Below are positions 30,286 to 62,917 of a stretch of 64,000 bases of DNA, one piece after another. The stretch is taken from NCBI GenBank assembly GCA_951406725.2, contig OX597815.1, positions 24,552,001-24,616,000 of the forward strand, written 5' to 3'. The notes beneath the pieces are model-generated. The model made no database searches. It was not told the DNA's origin and was given only the letters and a program-made list of their open reading frames with translations. Positions within the stretch are counted from its first letter, which is position 1. Each line of letters opens with the position of its first letter. Source of the stretch: Octopus vulgaris. Lineage: Eukaryota. Position numbers and translations under genes: made by a program.

Positions 30286-30368
30286 CTCTCTGAAGAGATT
30301 TTGACTAATATAATGATTAAAATAATTGCTGTTTAATCTATTAGGCTTAATTGAAACAGCTGTAAGGG
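30286..30368 (+). ncRNA. Type I hammerhead ribozyme motif
   Basis: ctct-CTGAAGA-gatt..ctaat/attag..aatt-GAAA-cagctg-TA-aggg; palindromic stem III. Confidence 0.75.
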
Positions 30369-50325: not shown

Positions 50326-50898
50326 TTAAGAAGCTAAATTATTTCTATAGTAAGTATTACAGTTAAAAAAAAAAAAGATAACTTGTAAACCTTTTACTCT
50401 CTATTATCTATAATTTGATTGATTTGACACAGGATGTTCTTTAGTTTGATTTCTTTTAGCTTATTAATGCCAACCATTCTGGTATTTAAAAGAAAATATT
50501 TATTTTCAGCTGAGCTGATGGAGGTAGTTAGATAATACTTCTTATATTTTCAGTTAGACTGACGAACAAATAGATAATATTTCTTCTCTATATCATATAT
50601 TTTAAACAAGACTTTAGGCAGCTAGACTGATGAAAGATGGCAGTAGTTAGATAATACAGCTTACCTATGTTATATATTTTAAAGCAGATTGATGAAAACA
50701 GGTAATTTATCTTGATTATGAACACAAAGAAATTCCAGGAGTAGAAAATGTTTTAATTAGTTTTTCGACATCTAACAACATGACTTTGAAACTTTTGAAT
50801 GTCAAACACAGTTACTTATTTTATTTAGTTGTTAAAATGCCAAGGAAAAAAAAAGCAAGAAAATAAAATAAAATCAAAGACAAAAATTGAAGCCTTAC

Positions 50899-51149: not shown

Positions 51150-52065
51150 TTGATAACCAAATTTATGACATAAAAACAACAATCATAATTTTGTGAGATA
51201 ACAAACATAACGCTTTGTTAAAAACTTCTAATAAAATTAAATTACGGGTGGCTCTATACATAAATTCTTTTAAGAATAGAAATTTAATTAATTCTACTGG
51301 CCTTAGTAAATATATATGGGAACTAAAATCTAAAAGTATTAAGTACAATTTAAATTGGGAGATAGTTTGTAAGGCAAAATCTTATCGAATAGGTAGTAAT
51401 TTTTGCTTATTATGTACTAATGAATTTAAGGAGATATTATTAATTAATAATAAAAATTTGGTTATTTCCTTGGATGAACGAAAAATTAAATGTAGACATA
51501 AGTTAAATTACTTATATAATAAGTTTAGCTAATTTGTGTATATATATAAACCCTATTTTATGTTACTAATTGTTGTAGTTATAATTTGTAGTAGTAAAAT
51601 GTGTATAAATTATTACAAGATTATAAGATTAAACTAAGATGTTTATAAAATAAATAGATAAATTAATGAAAATAGATTAAATTATAGAAATTTAGCTTAA
51701 TTCATGTATATTATATATTTTACATATTTTAGTTTTAAATTATTTAGACTTTAAAATTTTCCAGTAAATGGTATATTATAATTAATTTTTTCGTATTCTC
51801 ACAGCTAAAATAGATTTTGTCATTTTAACAACTTAAATACATATTTCTATCTATTTATTCTATAATTTTTATTTATGCCATATTTTCACGCAATATATTT
51901 CTTATAAACGCTAAGTTCTATGTATTATATTTAAAGTTTTAGTTAACAGAAATTCTTTGATAAGATAAGTTATGGTTTTATTTTAAGTAATATTGTTAAA
52001 ACACATATTTTTCTATATTTATTTGATGATAATTATAAGTTAAGATACGTACATTTATTTTATTA

Positions 52066-52097
<32 letters not shown>

Positions 52098-52360
52098 TTA
52101 GACCTGATGAGTGACTATATTTTTAAATAGAATTAATTTTAGATCAATTTAATTTCAAAGCGAATTGATTTTATTATCATTATCTACTTGAAAATATAGC
52201 AACGAAACGTGCGTAGTCAATATACTACTATTTACTATTTATTGTTTATGTACTTTATTGATTTTTAGAATAAGGTTTTTATAGCATATTTTTTTCTATA
52301 TGGTGTGAATAATGTCTTTCACTATTGAATTGCTTAATAGAGGTTTTTCTCTAAATTATG
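51150..52360 (+). mobile_element. Penelope-like element 3' remnant (GIY-YIG C-terminal region, Naiad-like) with hammerhead
   Basis: ORF 51215..51532 STGLSKYIWELK..LNWEI..AKSY....CLLC..E...KCRH; AT-rich tail with hammerhead motif. Confidence 0.75.
52101..52218 (+). ncRNA. Type I hammerhead ribozyme motif of a Penelope-like element
   Basis: gac-CTGATGA-long stem II (ctatatttt/aaaatatag)-GAAA-cgtgcg-TA-gtc. Confidence 0.75.
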
Positions 52361-52405
52361 TATCATCATCATTGTTTAATGTCCGTTTTCCATGCTAGCA
52401 TGGGT

Positions 52406-52436
<31 letters not shown>

Positions 52437-52564
52437 AAAAATAAGCAACCACAAAATTTATATATAAGATTAGAATTAAGTTTTGAAGAAAGAAAGTAGT
52501 CAAGTGACACAATGTTAATAGAAGTAAGGATGTAAAAAAAACTAAAGGTTCATTATTTACTTAC

Positions 52565-52690
52565 AATGGCCATGTCAAGTAAAAAGTTTTCAAACAATGT
52601 CCATAAATGATTACTCGTATAAATTTCCTTCATTTCAACTTCAGTATCTACATAGCAGTGGTTTAGAAAATTAATATAAGCTATTTTCAC
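52565..52690 (-). CDS. ITPR: IP3 receptor exon ([42 protein letters not shown])
   Basis: 126 nt, AG/GT; near-invariant IP3R sequence. Confidence 0.96.
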
Positions 52691-53352
52691 CTGCAAAACA
52701 CAAAGCATTAGAGTCAATTGTTATATGACATACATAAATAAATATAAACATAATTACATTTAATAAAAATTGAATGGAGTTTTAAGTGTCATTTGGATTG
52801 GTTCATTTATTTTACTTCAATGGAGTGGGGTGTAAAATCTATTTCATGTTCAGTTACTTTTCTCTTTCACCAAAGCAAAATAGATGTCCAATCAAAATGC
52901 TGCTTTTTAAAAAAAAAAGTTCCAGCCAGCATTTAATGCAATTGTGTCATTAAGGGTGGTCACCAGGTATCCTCTCATGGAAGCAATGGCTAGAAGAATG
53001 TAATGAACCTAGTGTATATCTTGCTAATCTATATAAGTACACATCCAATGGTATATTTTTCATTTCTCCTCAATAACTGTAGATGTGAAAGTAACCTCAT
53101 TTGTACACATGTTCTTCAAGAAAATGTTTTGTGACCAAAGGGACTTTTTCACAGTAGTCTGATCTTTCAAATTATTGTGATATTAGTTTTGGGTTTTCAA
53201 TTTTTCTTTAGCAAAATGATCCACTTTCCCTGTGTCTGTTAAAAAGGAAATTGTTCATCTAAATTTCTTGGTGGTAAAAGTATATGGTGAACTACTGAGA
53301 GAGAGTTTCCAGTAATTGTGCAAAGATTGAAAAAAATGAAAATGTAACTCAC

Positions 53353-53604
53353 CTCAGGAATACAGTTTACATCAATCACAACTTTAACAATATCATCTAA
53401 AGGCAGCAGTGAGTGACATTTGATTTCTGTATATACATTCTTTCCTTCTGTACACAAAGCTAGTAACTGTACTAAATTGATGTGGTATGCTAGAGGACTA
53501 CGCTCATCAGAGCGATGACGTTCAGATCGCATTAGTTGCACCAGAGTATCAAATGATGGTTTGTCATTGTAAAACAAAAGTACTTCCTCTCCAACACTGA
53601 TGAG
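53353..53604 (-). CDS. ITPR: IP3 receptor exon ([14 protein letters not shown]...[23 protein letters not shown]...CIPE)
   Basis: 252 nt, AG/GT, within ORF 53239..53670. Confidence 0.96.
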
Positions 53605-53979
53605 CTGCAGAAAGTCAGGAAAATAATATAAAAAGGCTTTGGTTAATCCAATAAGTGGTTTTTTCATCAATTTTCAAAAAAGTAATTCAAATCCTTATTT
53701 ATTGCAAAAAAAAAAAGGAAATAAATAGTCAATAAAACTATATGTTCTCAACAAGAGTATATAGTATTTGAAAACTAAAATAAAAAAAAATAAGAAACAG
53801 GCATACAATTTCATCATAAAAAAGTAAAAATATAATCCCTCAATTTCTTTAGAAATATGAAAATTTACCAATGTTTTAATTTTTCAACTGTATGAAATAT
53901 GATTCTAAAAACAATTCCAAATACAAATTTTTAAATAATTTTGATTTTATGTAATGTCAGATTCTTGCAAAATCCTTAC

Positions 53980-54180
53980 CTCAGCCATTACCATGTCTTG
54001 ACTTTTTCTGATGTATTGTCCTTCAGCCTTAACAATAGTTTGAAGAAACTTCAGATACTGAACGTGCCTGCCATGTGTCTCTATACAATGAACAAAATGT
54101 TGCACAATTCGTTCAGAAATTTCATTGCATAATAGTACATTATCTTCAAAAATGGATTTCATTGTCTGAGCTTCCAATAA
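53980..54180 (-). CDS. ITPR: IP3 receptor exon ([11 protein letters not shown]...[25 protein letters not shown]...MVMAE)
   Basis: 201 nt, AG/GT, within ORF 53947..54198. Confidence 0.96.
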
Positions 54181-54314
54181 CTGAAAGGAGATGAACACAA
54201 AAGGATTTTAAGATAAATAAAAGGTTCAGTAAATAGATATATCAAAAGAAAAAAGAACTGCTCTAATGCTTTTGAAGTATTAGAGCAATTCTCTGAAAGC
54301 TGACAAAACAATAT

Positions 54315-55090
54315 TTGAAAATATAAGGACACAGATCATGTTGTATAGCCAACTGGAGATGATATCTCCTGGGGCTAAATTACAGCAACATTCGTCCTAA
54401 CCAGGATTGCCATGTTATGTTGTCAAACAATCTTTACTACAAAGCTGACAAATTTTTAGTTTATGACTTTAGGTTTTTATTGAAAAGATAGTAATAGTTT
54501 AATAAATCTTTTTAATATGATATACTTCATAAAATAAGATTATACTTTACAATGCATATTGCTACTCAATAATGATGAAAAGATATCAAGCAATGCTATA
54601 GTGGTGTAAATATGTCTTGAATACTTACATAACTTGAAATATATTATAGTGAAGATTAAAAAAATCTTAGAAATTTTTATGTTGATATTATCTAAATCTG
54701 AGTACAAAGAAAAAGTTTCTTAACCAAATATCAAATTAAGATTAGAAAATTACTATGTTTTAAAATCTCACAATGAGAGATATTCAGCAACAATACTTTG
54801 TAGTAAAGATTGTTTGTCAACATAACATGGCAGTCCTGGTTTAGGACAAATGTTGTTGGAATTTAGCCCCAGGAGACATCATCTCCAGCTGACTATATGA
54901 CACAGTCTGTGTCCTTATATTTTTGAACAAGGGAATCTAGTACCCCCACTCAGCTCAAAACAATATCTGTGTACCGTGATTTCCAGGTTATTTTCCTTCA
55001 TCAGCACAGAATAATTGTTTGGCTAAATTACAACAACATTCACCCTAAGCCAGGACTGCTATGTGAAGTTGGCAAACAATCTTTACTACA
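54315..55090. repeat. Three-armed inverted repeat related to 9243-9508, containing a hammerhead
   Basis: arms ~54315-54445, 54797-54925, 55021-55090; core ccccaggagacatcatctccagctg. Confidence 0.8.
54968..55008 (-). ncRNA. Minimal hammerhead motif, sense to ITPR
   Basis: tgtg-CTGATGA-aggaaaataacctg-GAAA-tcacgg-TA-caca; 4-bp stem I. Confidence 0.65.
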
Positions 55091-55581
55091 TCAAATTAAA
55101 AGCCATAAGATGATCTCAATATAAAAACAATACTTTTTTATGAGAGCCAAACAAGGGAAAATTATCTAGAAACTGATTAGTGGCATCATAATATCAGTAA
55201 TATTAAACTTTAAAGTAGCATGATGAAAACATGTAACACTTAGCTTGGAAAAAAAAAAAAGAAAAAAATCATTTGAAAATCTTTATTAACCTGTATCTAT
55301 TTTAGTAAATTGTTTGTACATATTTTCACATGTATTTTATATTTGCCTCTCCAGTATTAAGTATTTGAAATAATTTTATGCTTTTGAATATGCTTTCACA
55401 GAGACTGACATTAAGTTGAATAAATCAACTGAAGTTGATGTTTATTTTTTCATTAACTTCTTAACAAACAAAAAAAAAAGACTTCAAGTTGAAAAAGGTT
55501 TAACTCAAAAGGACATAAGTTGAAGTATGCCTGTCATAGTAATATAGTATAACAGTAGAAATAACGACTTAAATAACTTAC

Positions 55582-55707
55582 TCCTGGGTTCAAGAAAAGG
55601 TCAACTTCTTTATGAAGTAAAACCTGATTTGCAGGATTTCCAAGACAGAAGCACTGAAGAAATTCATGAGCCAGTCTTATAATTTCATGCATACGGATAT
55701 CTTTGTT
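55582..55707 (-). CDS. ITPR: IP3 receptor exon ([42 protein letters not shown])
   Basis: 126 nt, AG/GT; RIH-domain motif LAHEFLQ.FC.GN..NQ.LLH. Confidence 0.95.
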
Positions 55708-56412
55708 CTGAAATAAATGTAAAAGATTAACTTTGTAATAGATATATATATATATATATTTATTTTTTTTTTACTACCCACAAGGGGCTAAACACAGAGA
55801 GGACAAACAAGGACAAACGGATTAAGTCGATTACATCGACCCCAGTGCGTAACTGGTACTTAATTTATTGACCCCGAAAGGATGAAAGGCAAAGTCAACC
55901 TCGGCGGATTAGGAGTTAAAAATATAGTAGCTATCTTGATCACTTCACGGAGAAGGGATTACACTAATGAAGGATGGTAATTCATTATCTGGTACAAATT
56001 GTGCTGTGCCGATTGCATACTTTTAAATACTAATGCAAGGCTCTTAGTTGAGGACAGCATCTGCCTAGAAGTTTGACTTTCAAAACTATTTCAGGTTTAT
56101 TGAGTCTTACACTCAACATTGAAATATTTAGATTTTTGACTTTTACTATTTTAAAGAAACTGTAAAGTTTAAGCTTTTGCTGAAATTCCAGCAAAACAAC
56201 ATTGGTAATATTAAAATATTTAAAGGGAAAAATTTGACAAGGCAGTCAGTCACCCACTGACACTCGTTGATGCTACATCGAAGAGGCCAGGGAACAGAAG
56301 AAAGAAGAAAGAAGACATGCACCCAACACCAGAGCTGAAGACACCTCTGAAAGTGGGGGCCCAGCCATGTCAAAACGGTAGAGGAATAGGGGCCGAAACC
56401 GGATGTGGCTCC

Positions 56413-56485
56413 TCCTGATGATGTCTTGAGCTAACTGGATCCTATAAAGGAGCTGTTGTGGTAGCAGATCACGAAACACGGTTGA
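56413..56485 (+). ncRNA. Degenerate hammerhead motif in a pLTR/retrozyme-like repeat (~56240-56600)
   Basis: tc-CTGATGA-...cagatcac-GAAA-cacgg-TT-ga; second degenerate CTGAAGA..GAAA just upstream. Confidence 0.45.
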
Positions 56486-57884
56486 AATTCCTCAGAATAC
56501 CTGCTTTGGGAATCATAATTAAAAAAGAGCAAAAAACCACCTGGCCTGTTAAGTCTTGACATCCCAGTAACAAAGCTGAGACTTCCTAACACTATTCTAC
56601 TTTTTCCCAATACACACACACACACACAAATCAAATGGAAATTGTAGTTGGGATACCCGTGCCGGTGGTACGTAAAAAGCTGAAATCATGTGATCTGGCA
56701 GTTCTGGTGGCTGTAGTAGATGGTTCTTGCACACCAGTAATATAAACCACAAATCCATATGAGAGATGCTCTTGTGGAAAATAACACAGTATTCTGTGTT
56801 TTAACATGATCCAATGAACTGAGAGATAAATATTTCTTAAATTAGTATTTCATATTAAGAGTTTCAGAAGCCATAAATATCCCCTCCCAGGGGATGAGGT
56901 AAGTTGATTACATTGATGGGGTAAGTTTGATTACAGCAGTGGTACTGACGTAATCAAAACCCCCAAAAGAATGAAAGGCAAAGTTGACGGAATTTGAACT
57001 CAGAATGTAAAAACAGATGAGATGCTGCTAAGCATTTTTTCCCAGTATGCTAATGGTTTGCCCATCCACTACCTCAAAGAGGCTATAGATATTGATGAAT
57101 AAAAGCAATGAATATATTAAATTGATGTCATCATTATAGCATTATTTTCCATGCTAATATACATTAGCTGAGTCTGTGCAACAATATGCAATATTATTTC
57201 ATTGAAATTACATATCCCAGATATTTTCTGTTTTATTGAATCTAAATGTTAACACAAACCAATATCTGAATTAGAAATTTAATCATGTGTTAACATATTT
57301 GTTAATACTCAGGTCTGTCATGAGTTTTAGGTCTCAGAAGAACAGAGCTTAACACGATTTCCATGGTGTATAAGGTCTGGACTGCAATACTCCCCACTAA
57401 ATGGGACACCAGTCCATCACAGGGTTAACTTCCCAACTATTGTTGGAACTCATTTACAGTTGAATGGACTGTGGCAACATGAAATGTAACACCAACCAGT
57501 TTGGAAACAGAAACCATGATGAGTGCAACACCCTAACCACAAGGCCATCCACTTTCACTTTGTCAGTATTCCAGCCATATGAAGACGGTGAGCTGGCATA
57601 AACATTAGCATGCCGGGCGAAATGCTTAGCAGTATTTCATGTGTCTTTATGTTCTGAGTTCAAATTCTACCAAGGTTGACTTTGCCATTCATCCTTTCGG
57701 GGTTCATAAATTAAGTACCAGTTGCATACTGGAGTTGATCTAATTGACTGCCCTCCCGCTTCACAAAAAATTCGGGCCTTGTGCCTAGAGTGGAAAAGAA
57801 AAGAAAAAAAAAGTATTCCAGCCACATTAAACACTCAGCTATTGTCAAAATTATATTTTGGCAGCTGACTTGGCAGACACCCAT

Positions 57885-58270
57885 AAAATTATTAACCATC
57901 TTACAAACAATAACTCTGAGCACCTTTTCAAACTCCACCTGTCTAACACCCGTGGACATGTTTACAAAGTCAGAAAACAGCACAGCTCCCATGACTTTCA
58001 GAAACATTTTTTCATGCTAAGAGTTGCTGAAGTATGGAATAAACTGCCAGCATCAATTGTTAGTTGTCGGAGCACTGCATCCTTCAAAACTTCCATGCTT
58101 CCTGAGATTCGCCAACACTATACCTAATTTTCCCCCTCCATACACACACAAGCATGTATCTGACTCATACACTGATCACTTTCCAGACATTTGTACATTA
58201 CTGCATATACTTTATACACACTTTTGACAAGTTGTGCTGCAATAGAGCACTGTATACAATAATTTCATTA
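57885..58270 (+). mobile_element. CR1-like LINE 3' fragment
   Basis: NTRGHVYKV..KHFFMLRVAEVWNKLP. Confidence 0.75.
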
Positions 58271-58359
58271 TTATAACAGCAAAAATAAAAGATAAATAAA
58301 TTACAAATTCATTGTAATGTTTATTTTTTGAAAATCCATAAAATCCAAAACAGGCTTAC

Positions 58360-58500
58360 CTTGTCAAAAGGAATTTGTAACAATTCCAAAACAACAGAGT
58401 GAGCAGCCATATTCCTAAGTAGTCGTTGTTCATGTTTCCTTGGCTTTTTATTTCCCTCTGATGTTTCTTGGACACACAGTTTAGTAAGGCGCAATAGGAT
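58360..58500 (-). CDS. ITPR: IP3 receptor exon ([12 protein letters not shown]...[25 protein letters not shown])
   Basis: 141 nt, AG/GT; conserved [16 protein letters not shown]. Confidence 0.95.
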
Positions 58501-58806
58501 CTGTAGAAGAAACAGGATATTTTTTTAAAAGAAGTGCCTTAACATTATCAAAATCAGTAAATAATAAAATATTTTATTTATCGTCTTGAATTTATGCTTC
58601 ATATTGAGACAAATGGTTTTCGTACTTTGTCTTAGTAGAGGTATTTCATGTTATTTCTAATACCAACAACTATGTTTTCCAAAGGATGTGATAAAAGCAC
58701 CCAAATAAAGTATTTCTCCTTTATAACTGTATTTAATCTATTTTCCCTTAATGGAGACGAAATACTAAAATGTTCTACTCTGCCCAAAAGATACATACAT
58801 ATATAT

Positions 58807-58847
<41 letters not shown>

Positions 58848-58961
58848 TATATATATATATATAGTTAATCCAAACATGAACAAAGAGAAAACACAACAAT
58901 GCGAGGACGTGGAACAAGTATAGTGTTATTGGACGCTTAGGAAAGGAAAGAAAGTAGGAGA

Positions 58962-58995
58962 ATTTAACGTTTCGAGCAGAGCTCTTCATCAGAAA
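58962..58995 (-). ncRNA. Minimal hammerhead motif, sense to ITPR
   Basis: tt-CTGATGA-agagctctgctc-GAAA-cgt-TA-aa. Confidence 0.65.
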
Positions 58996-59063
58996 CATTG
59001 AAAAAGTAAAGGTCCTAGGAAGGGAGGAAGGAGAAAGAAAATCACCAACGATACACACGTGGT

Positions 59064-59099
<36 letters not shown>

Positions 59100-59132
59100 C
59101 AAACGTATATAAATATATATATATATACAAAC

Positions 59133-59184
<52 letters not shown>

Positions 59185-59187
59185 TAC

Positions 59188-59541
59188 AAATATATATTTT
59201 AATTTAGAGATAGTAGGCCCCTACATCTCACCATATAAAAAGTATTTTTATTTTTACTTTAAATACCTACTGTTTTATTACTTGGCAACACGTGTTTCAT
59301 GAGGTGCATCCTCGGGTTCCTAAACCACTCTCAAAATGGAACCCCTCTCAAAATGCCACCCCAATCATCAGGCCCTTATATCACTTTATCAATGTTGATA
59401 AATGTTTAGGAACCTGAGGATGCACCTCATGAAACACGTGTTGCCAAGTAATAAAACAGTAGGTATTTAAAGTAAAAATAAAAATTCTTTTTATTTGGTG
59501 AGATGTAGGGGCCTACTATCTCTAAGTTAAAATATATATTT
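59188..59541. repeat. Long inverted repeat (~138-bp arms) between (TA)n tracts
   Basis: 59188-59325 reverse-complements 59404-59541 with few mismatches. Confidence 0.9.
59284..59374 (-). ncRNA. Type I hammerhead ribozyme motif within a long inverted repeat, sense to ITPR
   Basis: ggc-CTGATGA-ttggggtg/cacctcat-GAAA-cacgtg-TT-gcc. Confidence 0.65.
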
Positions 59542-59845
59542 CTTCATTGAGAATAATTTGAATCTCTGTTATGCCAGAATGTTTATTCCCTAAAAATAAT
59601 ATTTATATATATATATATATATATAATAAATATTAAATATTAGGGAATAAATCCAAACTTACAGGGAAAAATCAGATTTAGGATTGAATCCAATTTTATA
59701 GTAAAATATTATATTATATTAAATTAGAGACAAAACCACTATTAGGCAAATCATACAATGAAAAACTTAAGCCAATACATAAGATTATTTAATTTATATT
59801 ATTTAAATATATAACAAAATTATTAAAAAAATATAATTAATATAA

Positions 59846-59909
59846 CACTACGATCATTTCATGGCTGTTAATTTCTTTAAATTTTCGAGTTACAGTCATT
59901 CATCAGGTG
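59846..59909 (-). ncRNA. Type I hammerhead ribozyme motif, sense to ITPR
   Basis: cac-CTGATGA-atgactgt/acagccat-GAAA-tgatcg-TA-gtg. Confidence 0.75.
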
Positions 59910-60026
59910 GTTTAAATATTTATCTTGGCGAGGTTTAAACAATGAACTAATTTAATATAATATATATATATATATGATGATGATATATATGTGCATTGCA
60001 TTTAATAAAAATAATATAAATCTTAC

Positions 60027-60119
60027 TTCTTTTTTCTTTTTGTAATTAACTTCTGCTAATTTATCAATGTTAGGTCCTAAACCCAGATCAATAGCTGAGC
60101 CTTGATCAGCTCCAAGTTC
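60027..60119 (-). CDS. ITPR: IP3 receptor exon (ELGADQGSAIDLGLGPNIDKLAEVNYKKKKE)
   Basis: 93 nt, phase 0/0, GAA|GTAAGA donor; ends NY...KE as expected before ILLRL. Confidence 0.85.
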
Positions 60120-61188
60120 CTAGATAAAGAGAGGAAAAAAATTAAAGATGAATAAGAATTCTTTAAGCAACATTGAAAAGTATAACATAATAATTTTTCA
60201 AGTTATTAGCTCCATATTAACGAAAAAGTTTTTGAATGCTTACATGAACATGTTTTGATCAATTTAAACTCAATCTGTTAATAAGAGTCTATATCTGTAT
60301 GTTCTTTTATTCTTTTATTTGTTTCAGTCATCTGACTGTGGCCATGCTGGAGCACCACCTTTAGTTGAAGAAATAGATCTCAGGACTTATTCTTTATAAG
60401 CCTAGTCTATCAGTCCATTTTGCCAAATCACTAAGTTACTGGGACATAAATACACCAACATTGGTTGTCAAACAATGGTAGGGGAACAAACTCAGCCCCA
60501 CCCCCAACAAATACATGCATTGGGTCATCCTATAAACAACCAGGCTTTTTCAATTGTATGAACTAAAAGTTGGCTGGCCTTTATTTAGATATTTGTAAAT
60601 GTAATTGCAACAATATTCCATGTGGATCTTGTGCTTTGTAGACTCAGCAAGTAACCAAGCTAAATTATTTTCTAAACCTGAAAAGTTAATCTAGTCATCA
60701 TGATTTTGTTTTGATTATATCACATATATGTGATGTTGCTTTGAAAGATCATTAGAGATTGAGGACTAAACTTTGAAGTGAATTCAAGAGATCTTGGTTA
60801 TCTGTTTGTTGTTCATTTGTAGAGAAAGTTTGGTACAAAACTACTTCATTGGTACACATGGTAATTATGTGTTCGCATTGTTAAGAGAGACAAGCTTGTT
60901 ATATTCCCATTGATGGATATTCTCAATACTTCTGTTCTCAGAGCTAGTGCAAGACTAGTGTAAAGTGTTTATACTGCATGAGGATGAATATGAGTAGAAT
61001 TTAGTATCAACAGTACAAGAGTATGTGCTGGGAGCATTGACAAAAACAAAATGGCAGTTATATATAAAAATAAGGGCTCACAAAATATATGCAGCCTGAA
61101 AATAATTAATAGATAAACTTAATTTTTCTATATACTGTTTTATTCATGAAAATTTTAAAAGTAGAAGCCAATGAAAACTTTAACTCAC

Positions 61189-61227
61189 CCAGGCATTTTG
61201 TTTTCGCATTTTAGATTCACTTTTTTC
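61189..61227 (-). CDS. ITPR: Small IP3 receptor exon in a variable loop (EKSESKMRKQNAW)
   Basis: 39 nt, ttcttcattctttag acceptor, TGG|GTGAGT donor, phase 0/0, no stop; no homology support. Confidence 0.7.
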
Positions 61228-62917
61228 CTAAAGAATGAAGAAAAATTGTGTTATGAAATGCAAACAGATAAATGTGTAAGATGAGAAAGTTGTTTAAAAG
61301 GGTTTTTCAAAATACAAGCTGATAAATATGTTTAAGAACATCTATTGATATCAGGATTTTATTATTAATTTCAGAATTTGGTTATCATTGTGCCCAAAAT
61401 TTATCACATTTTCAATAACTTCATATTTTTTACATTTTTAAGATAGTAGGGGAAATATTGAAAGAGATCTGCCTGCTAACTGTAGCAGGTTGTACTGTCT
61501 CAGGACTTGACAAACAGACAGTTATATACCAAAACACTTAGGGCCTGGAGGAATCATTGCACTCACAAACATCTACAATTTCTTACTCCAACACTGCCAA
61601 ATCCCCATAATCTGAAAACTGGGCAAAATCATCACAATTTTGAAGCCCAGCAAAACCCTCTGGAAAAGCAGTATCACACAAACCCATAACTTTGTCTGCA
61701 CATCTTGAAAATGTTAAAACCACCCAACCTTCACATCATTAATTCACACACTCCTTCTTTTAAATCCAACACATATTCAGGTTACTACATTCAATCACCA
61801 CACAACTTATACAACATAGAAGTTACATGATAACCTCAACTGCAACATTCAAACTACCATTAACATCAGCAAAGCTTTGATTCCATTTCTTGCCAGCTAC
61901 TTACACAAAATAGCCAACATCGCCTTAAGAAATGACACAAAACACTGGATACCAAACTTATGCAATGCATAAAAGCAACACACAGAATTTGTAATTTCCC
62001 TAATGGAGTACCACAAGGCTCCATCTTTTTATGGACAGGATATACAGGCTTGGCTGTTTGGTCAAAATTTTTTCCAAAAAACCATGCAGTTATAGATTTG
62101 ATCTTATTGCAGTACAATTTAAGCAAAGCTTTTCAGGTGATCAAACGTTATGAATGAAGTTTGCTGGATGGAAACTGCATTGAAGCCTATCATTTGTGTG
62201 TGTGTGTGTGCATGAATGTGCATGCTTGTGCATGTGGTGTGCATGCGGAGTGTGTGTGTGTGTGTGTTTATACTGGTGCAAATTGGAAATTAGTACACTC
62301 AAACTGAAATATTTTGCACTATTTTTGCCAGAATGAATTATCATCTTCTATGTCAATGTTCACTTTACATCATACAAGAATGATGAAATAAAAACCAGGC
62401 AATATACTGGAACTGGTATAATCAACTAAAAGCTCTTGTGCCTAAAATCAATACCAGAAAACGACAAAAATATGTCAAAAATCAGTACCAGAAAAAGACA
62501 CAAATACAGAGCGTAACTGGATAGTAGAGAGAATACAAAATGTCAAATACAAAATGTACCCATATAATTAAACACTTTATGTTTCAGTGTCCAGTACAAG
62601 AACATGCAAAATGTTGAAGTATGCAGTAGAACTATGCTATGTCTTAGACAATAGATCAAAGGGTTGTACCAAGTCTTTCAGCTGATTACATGTATGCCAT
62701 AGGTCTATTTGATTATAGCTGGTCTAGGACAGCATGACAATTCACTGCTTTATTTCATGATTTAATAAAATAATTGGGGGTTATGAGCTATGAGAAACTT
62801 TTTTTAAAAAGGCATCATCTTACATTCTGTTTGAATACAATTGAATGAATGACACAATAGAGAAAAAAAAGTTAAATAAACATTAAAGTGAAGGAAAAAA
62901 GTTAATTGAAATTTTAC

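Follow-up and report, generated by a model that had tools for sequence, protein, structure and literature searches.

Hammerhead motifs in two introns of an Octopus vulgaris IP3-receptor gene as probable ends of dispersed retroelements

The stretch of the Octopus vulgaris genome analyzed here (64,000 nt of contig OX597815.1, positions 24,552,001 to 24,616,000; hereafter the window, numbered from its first letter) lies entirely within an IP3-receptor (ITPR) gene, two introns of which carry four hammerhead ribozyme motifs, M1 to M4, inside 5 kb of the sense strand. An initial annotation of this DNA had pointed to the four motifs and suggested that their cleavage might affect splicing or release small or circular RNAs, or that they may be inert. 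The last of these options gives the best reading of our data: M1–M4 are very probably the hammerhead-bearing ends of four dispersed retroelement families, independently inserted and likely carried as inert passengers of the ITPR pre-mRNA.

All four motifs contain the CUGAUGA...GAAA...UH core and were recovered where they had been reported, on the minus strand, which is the sense strand of ITPR. M1 (59846..59909, minus strand) combines a 3-bp stem I with a 39-nt stem II region and has A at 59849 as H17, while M2 (59284..59374, minus strand) has a 3-bp stem I, a 66-nt stem II region, a perfect 8-nt palindrome and U at 59287 as H17. M3 (58962..58996, minus strand) is a minimal hammerhead with a 4-bp stem I, an extra A after A9, a G10.1-C11.1 pair, a 4-nt palindrome and U at 58966 as H17. 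In M4 (54966..55010, minus strand), a 6-bp stem I is prolonged by a bulge and a distal helix, loop II has 6 nt, the palindrome is decayed and H17 is A at 54972. At its base, stem II has A-U in M1, U.U in M2 and A.G in M4. Stems I to III can pair with stem I open, and the monomer stem III has 2 bp in M1, M2 and M4 and 0 bp in M3. As previously described, the short, near-palindromic stems III differ among the four motifs. The cleavage sites predicted earlier at 59849, 59287 and 54972 stand, whereas that of M3, in the palindromic register, is the U at 58966 and not position 58965.

A descriptor for type I hammerheads, which asks for stems I and II, a palindromic stem III and UH, was composed after the motifs were known and is passed by M4 only with palindrome mismatches permitted. 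It gave five matches in the window, above the chance level of the shuffled sequences (mean 0.05 in 60 shuffles, maximum 1; mean 0.14 in 100 shuffles, maximum 1). Exons of RyR and of dynein AAA_6 served as anchors for a 1.2-Mb control, made up of the gene region of RyR and 13 of dynein heavy chains; here the same descriptor gave 24 matches, against 0 in 1.2 Mb of shuffled DNA. We give almost no credence to the view that AT-rich DNA produced these matches by chance. It can draw on the tuning of the descriptor on these same motifs and on the search with Rfam hammerhead models, a check proposed in the initial annotation, which returned no hammerhead at the gathering score over the whole window nor at E<=10 over 52000-62000; the control counts together with the family context described below refute it, and the position and architecture of the motifs match those of published Hydra-element hammerheads. 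The Rfam microRNA matches were dismissed as (TA)n/(CA)n artefacts.

M1–M4 come from four different families of dispersed repeats. Each has look-alikes across the genome in the hundreds to thousands, which leaves a special link to ITPR splicing unsupported. Searches of the octopus genome itself (2.8 Gb) returned 1,324 first-look candidates for M1, 684 for M2, 3,543 for M3, and 1,869 and 3,789 for M4, numbers that are not to be taken as copy numbers. The best 40 per family were scored, and the window copy is 97-99% identical to the best copies for M1 and 87-96% for M2, M3 and M4. The family analysis comprised 29 non-self loci per family, with 28 for M3 in the count of inverted copies, and 116 non-self loci in the flank test. 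The 5' core is intact in 39/42 (M1), 27/30 (M2), 28/31 (M3) and 34/37 (M4) family copies, and a stem III palindrome was found in all four families, the perfect family form being present in 37/42, 23/30, 28/31 and 17/37 aligned copies, respectively. Of the window copies, M1 and M4 stray from the family palindrome, partly at CpG sites; M1 differs at a single place from the form of the 37 copies. The insertion signature of Penelope-like elements (PLEs) is present, with (TA)n beside M1–M3 and inverted arms beside M2 and M4, and a second motif copy on the opposite strand occurs at 14 of 29 loci for M1, 9 of 29 for M4, 1 of 29 for M2 and 0 of 28 for M3. The family context and the palindromic stem III thus bear out the earlier attribution to type I hammerheads of the Penelope or retrozyme type.

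By its motifs and BLAST matches, on which the clade assignment is based, M2 can be classed as the 3' terminus of a Penelope-like element of the Hydra clade. The M2 element (59188..59396, minus strand) is accompanied by an inverted, 5'-truncated copy (59389..59541, plus strand), a 153-nt arm that is 93% complementary to 59188-59340. Longer copies reach at least 780 nt further upstream, and in these M2 lies ~750 nt behind a Hydra-type GIY-YIG open reading frame (ORF). In three loci (L006, L298, L301) the GIY-YIG C-terminus ends 130-155 nt ahead of the M2 upstream region, and in two others (L303, L304) endonuclease (EN), 3' untranslated region (3'UTR) and hammerhead follow in that order, with a reverse transcriptase (RT) remnant additionally in L303. 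In all five, the hammerhead is preceded by a C-terminal GIY-YIG with a CxCX5C linker, CxxC and CxH. A sister family of elements nearly identical to one another (L305-L308, at G000 C7, C4, C17 and C20) has unbroken frames of 821-852 aa with an Asn-rich insert between RT and EN, which suggests recent activity; in the copy checked, L306, the WK, DKT, CxCX5C, CxxC and CxH motifs are present. WK and DKT were seen only in this intact sister family, the RT of the M2-linked copies being the remnant in L303, and no Pfam model matched these GIY-YIG or RT proteins. In stem II of the window copy of M2 (59334-59345 region), a loop segment is swapped for a local duplication, with five substitutions and a 4-nt gap relative to all family copies; this duplication probably reflects a template switch during formation of the inverted arm.

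The M1 element (59599..59945, minus strand), which lies between (TA)n runs, represents the 3' terminus of a young family of Penelope-like elements. Over 170-181 nt, its tail shares 87-88% identity with the pseudo-long-terminal-repeat (pLTR) tail of intact Hydra-clade elements (L305-L307). The M3 element (58861..59067, minus strand) is non-coding, ~207 nt long and has sharp ends, mostly in (TA)n. A Neptune-type ORF was considered as a parent of M2, with an RT beside M2 in L036, and was rejected as a chance adjacency, given that neither the M2 element nor the region ahead of it was matched by any of 20 longer stretches. One Neptune-type copy (L275) bears a different hammerhead. Many Neptune-type elements have open frames of 750-860 aa (e.g., G000 C1:9001823 and C22:35574919; L277-L287); at the 3' ends of these, no descriptor-type hammerhead was found within 1.3 kb, one group having a CUGAAGA half core only.

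The M4 element (54742..55025, minus strand) corresponds to positions 80-353 of a non-coding unit with 38% GC, whose length of 353 nt is given by the spacing in locus L113. An inverted fragment of the unit (55021..55090, plus strand) adjoins the 5' end of M4, and a second antisense fragment, without ribozyme, lies at 54318..54444 (plus strand). At 15 of the 29 non-self loci, the motif of the unit's 3' end lies ahead of the ribozyme, and each of the 40 scored loci aligns with a two-unit query over 497-681 nt. The M4 family occurs as head-to-tail, longer-than-unit copies, the pattern of non-long-terminal-repeat (non-LTR) retrozymes. Long arrays were absent from the best 40 loci, found with a query that held two units only. 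Copies with two head-to-tail units (L113:1100-1780; G000:C2:4649119-4649788; C27:35145397-35146072) are candidate source loci of a circular RNA; in L113, the hammerhead core of the first unit is broken. The window copy comprises ~278 of the 353 nt with a single ribozyme; being below unit length with one ribozyme, it could not give rise to a unit circle unaided.

In the likely course of events, Penelope-like RT/GIY-YIG proteins would have pasted the four elements separately into ITPR introns. In the parent elements, the ribozyme may act as a double hammerhead through the palindromic stem III, or with the element's protein, processing the element RNA. An inserted solo copy would have no partner in cis and would decay at CpG sites, while a preference for (TA)n would pile elements up, with four sense copies arising by chance.

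The distribution of motifs in the control genes bears on the last of these steps. The initial annotation had proposed a check for a sense/antisense bias, and none appears: the 24 descriptor matches divide into 12 sense and 12 antisense, a count by homology gives 12:14, and 22/24 matches fall at 11:11 within a roughly defined exon span, some peptides of which derive from repeats. Each of three inverted pairs adds one sense and one antisense match, and their exclusion leaves 9:9. In the window the ratio is 4:2 (P 0.69), and over the whole ~190-kb gene 5:3. The sense orientation of M1–M4 is not special, and the four sense copies are likely a chance outcome, in a sample whose small size would accommodate a modest bias. 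A (TA)6+ run lies within 400 nt of 17/24 control motifs, compared with 23.5% of random sites (P 1e-6), and the M1–M3 intron contains seven such runs. Motifs from other families are enriched next to the 116 non-self loci, whose flanks hold 16 where 7.4 would be expected (P 0.004). The motifs probably cluster because the elements prefer (TA)n targets. Among the 24 control motifs, many of which have stem II regions of 40-70 nt, there are 21 different stem III/H17 combinations, implying dozens of hammerhead-bearing families. If the introns of the control are representative, their density (24 per 1.2 Mb) would extrapolate to ~56,000 motifs in a whole genome. The RyR region (G000:C11:32451001-32551000) gave 0 descriptor matches in 100 kb, where ~2 would be expected at the control density, a non-significant difference.

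The host gene, on the minus strand and spanning the entire window, was identified as ITPR by a PDB match (ITPR1, E 8e-39) and its Pfam RIH domain, with molluscs among the closest matches of a protein search at 71-73% identity. M1–M3 share an intron of 1,526 nt (60026 to 58501), in agreement with the 1.5 kb given earlier, between exons at 60027..60119 and 58360..58500 (minus strand); M1 begins 117 nt past the donor GT at 60026, where ~118 nt had been noted. The M4 intron (55581-54181, 1,401 nt) lies between exons at 55582..55707 and 53980..54180 (minus strand), the latter encoding part of the RIH domain. ITPR has dosage-sensitive roles in signaling. This property, the occurrence of four sense motifs in 5 kb and the short distance of 117 nt between the donor and the first of them could speak for a cluster co-opted for regulation, in which sequential intronic cleavage would tune ITPR splicing or free small or circular RNAs. 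We consider such a co-option very improbable, since the 97-98% identity of M1 to dispersed copies marks a recent insertion, the palindromes of M1–M4 are mutually incompatible, M2 is predicted to be buried, the motifs have left rather than retained their family palindromes, and the gene as a whole holds 5 sense and 3 antisense motifs.

Folding predictions and most published activities of motifs of this kind suggest little capacity for self-cleavage. In context, the hammerhead is not the favored fold: in M1, M3 and M4 it is predicted to be 3-13 kcal/mol less stable than the minimum. For M2 with its inverted arm, the predicted difference is 38-65 kcal/mol, and M2 is predicted to be buried because the arm (153 nt, 93%), which is transcribed first, captures its 3' half. 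M4, in turn, sits in the loop and not in the stem of its own inverted repeat. Because the palindromes of M1–M4 differ, the motifs would not pair with each other and a double hammerhead needs a second RNA of the same family; heterodimers among M1–M4 were rejected on this ground. In the accessible parts of the work on minimal hammerhead ribozymes (min-HHRs), cleavage is absent from single copies and low in dimers (Cervera and de la Pena 2014, PMC4209133). The hammerhead of an anole PLE depends on the protein of the element, is not required for insertion in vitro and has no RNA-seq ends at its site (PMC11167929). Self-cleavage of M1–M4 in the ITPR message is, by these predictions and analogies, likely to be rare if it occurs at all.

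It is unlikely, albeit the most credible departure from inert passengers, that one or more copies, M4 most plausibly, bring about low-rate cleavage of the nascent ITPR intron with a modest and unselected effect, helped in trans by a Penelope protein or by pairing to retrozyme RNA of their own family, which would be abundant. Such cutting is favored by the intact cores, by the 6-bp stem I and long distal helix of M4 and its placement in the inverted-repeat loop, by the 26 exact genomic copies of the undecayed M4 motif, and by the protein assistance available to PLE hammerheads (PMC11167929). In addition, the dimer hammerhead of a natural M4 family copy is the predicted cofold minimum (-29.3 kcal/mol). 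With the decayed palindrome of the window copy, however, the dimer hammerhead (-12.7 kcal/mol) lies 10 kcal/mol above the cofold minimum, and the absence of sense depletion in the controls (12:12) suggests little cost to the host, with 24 matches leaving room for a modest bias.

Several observations weigh against the reading of M1–M4 as inert retroelement ends. The catalytic core is intact in 4/4 window copies, and with shared variants counted, core columns are less variable than others (e.g., 4/330 versus 141/2964 in M2), a pattern consistent with selection acting on the source elements. For singleton changes, the core does not differ significantly from other positions in any family (P 0.14-1.0; low power), with a trend towards core conservation in M3 and M4; selection after insertion was rejected on the non-significant outcome of this low-powered test in every family. 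M1's own ORF was not found in its 29 loci, nor was a parent ORF for M3 or for M4 in 29 loci each. Four motifs in 5 kb far exceed the control density, with a Poisson probability of 4e-6 per stretch, corresponding to ~2 stretches per genome without clumping. The folding results are nearest-neighbor energies, which ignore tertiary contacts and co-transcriptional folding. M4 resembles self-sufficient type I ribozymes in its extended stem I, monomers of mussel retrozymes cleave at ~0.1/min according to the accessible parts of Cervera and de la Pena 2020 (PMC7229834), and frames that look intact exist in the octopus genome, making protein-assisted cleavage possible.

A broader scenario, which we regard as speculative and improbable, starts from the coexistence of the 353-nt retrozyme, with its Hydra-type 8-nt palindrome, and intact-frame Hydra elements. 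Retrozyme RNA or Penelope protein might then activate thousands of intronic solo copies in trans, with the palindrome as a pairing code, cutting host pre-mRNAs such as that of ITPR when the elements are expressed. If solo intronic copies were indeed switched on in trans, the expression of retroelements would be tied directly to cleavage of host pre-mRNA, a new mode of interference between transposon and host. For ITPR itself, the motifs as inert retroelement ends are of little importance, a local pile-up of a known type of retroelement tail. Their value lies with specialists in transposons and ribozymes, in the probable 353-nt cephalopod retrozyme family and in Hydra-clade hammerheads with an unusually long stem II.

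The setting is also not confined to the sense strand, as it had appeared initially, for the window holds two antisense motifs. The first (30286..30368, plus strand) belongs to another family and is the fifth match of the descriptor. The second (52101..52218, plus strand), with a stem II region of ~95 nt, was read by eye and fails the descriptor's rule for stem II. This motif lies ~570 nt behind the C-terminal GIY-YIG remnant of a Hydra-clade element, which is antisense to ITPR (51197..51532, plus strand) and 70% identical to an intact ORF, with an AT-rich 3'UTR between remnant and motif. At 50555-50700 (plus strand), a short repeat in two copies 68-77 nt apart carries CUGANGA half cores without a matching GAAA or palindrome.

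Among known intronic hammerheads, the ultraconserved HH9 and HH10 of amniotes are located on the sense strand, single-copy and deeply conserved. The window motifs are likewise intronic and sense, but high-copy, recent and decaying. The M4 family resembles the metazoan non-LTR retrozymes, as far as these are described in the available portions of Cervera and de la Pena 2020 (PMC7229834), in its non-coding unit, type I hammerhead and head-to-tail, longer-than-unit insertions. The mussel units in that source measure ~350-390 nt (PMC7229834), and in Xenopus 42-44% of retrozyme copies lie in introns according to the part of the preprint available (Li, Clavereau and Pollet 2026, bioRxiv 10.64898/2026.07.22.740005). 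The M4 family differs from these retrozymes in that many insertions have PLE-style inverted truncated copies and the window copy is below one unit. No cephalopod retrozyme is described in the titles or abstract openings of the literature searched, a coverage that excludes most subscription papers.

M3 fully fits the min-HHRs as given in the accessible text of Cervera and de la Pena 2014 (PMC4209133), with the extra nucleotide after A9, G10.1-C11.1, palindromic 15.2-16.2, no monomer stem III, mostly solo, dispersed copies and many families per genome. M1, M2 and M4 have 8-nt palindromes and lack a plain G10.1-C11.1 pair by the core (PMC4209133).

A close parallel is provided by the Hydra clade of PLEs, defined in the available parts of Craig et al. 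2021 (PMC8557442) by a CxCX5C linker with CxxC and CxH. Its published motif table lists stems II based on U.U, palindromes of 8-10 nt and H17 = A, U or C, and includes Hydra-1_Obim of Octopus bimaculoides (PMC8557442). Shared with the families described here are the C-terminal GIY-YIG, the CxCX5C linker, (TA)n targets and inverted 5'-truncated copies, as well as the position of the hammerhead near the 3' end, the extra nucleotide where stem II begins and the palindromic stem III (PMC8557442). By hammerhead sequence, compared by eye, the present families are not Hydra-1_Obim, and the window copies, unlike the published Hydra elements, are ORF-less tails (PMC8557442). Within the hammerhead itself, the stem II regions of 39-95 nt found here, against loops of ~10 nt or less in the published rows, are the sole feature that goes beyond the Hydra rows of that source (PMC8557442).

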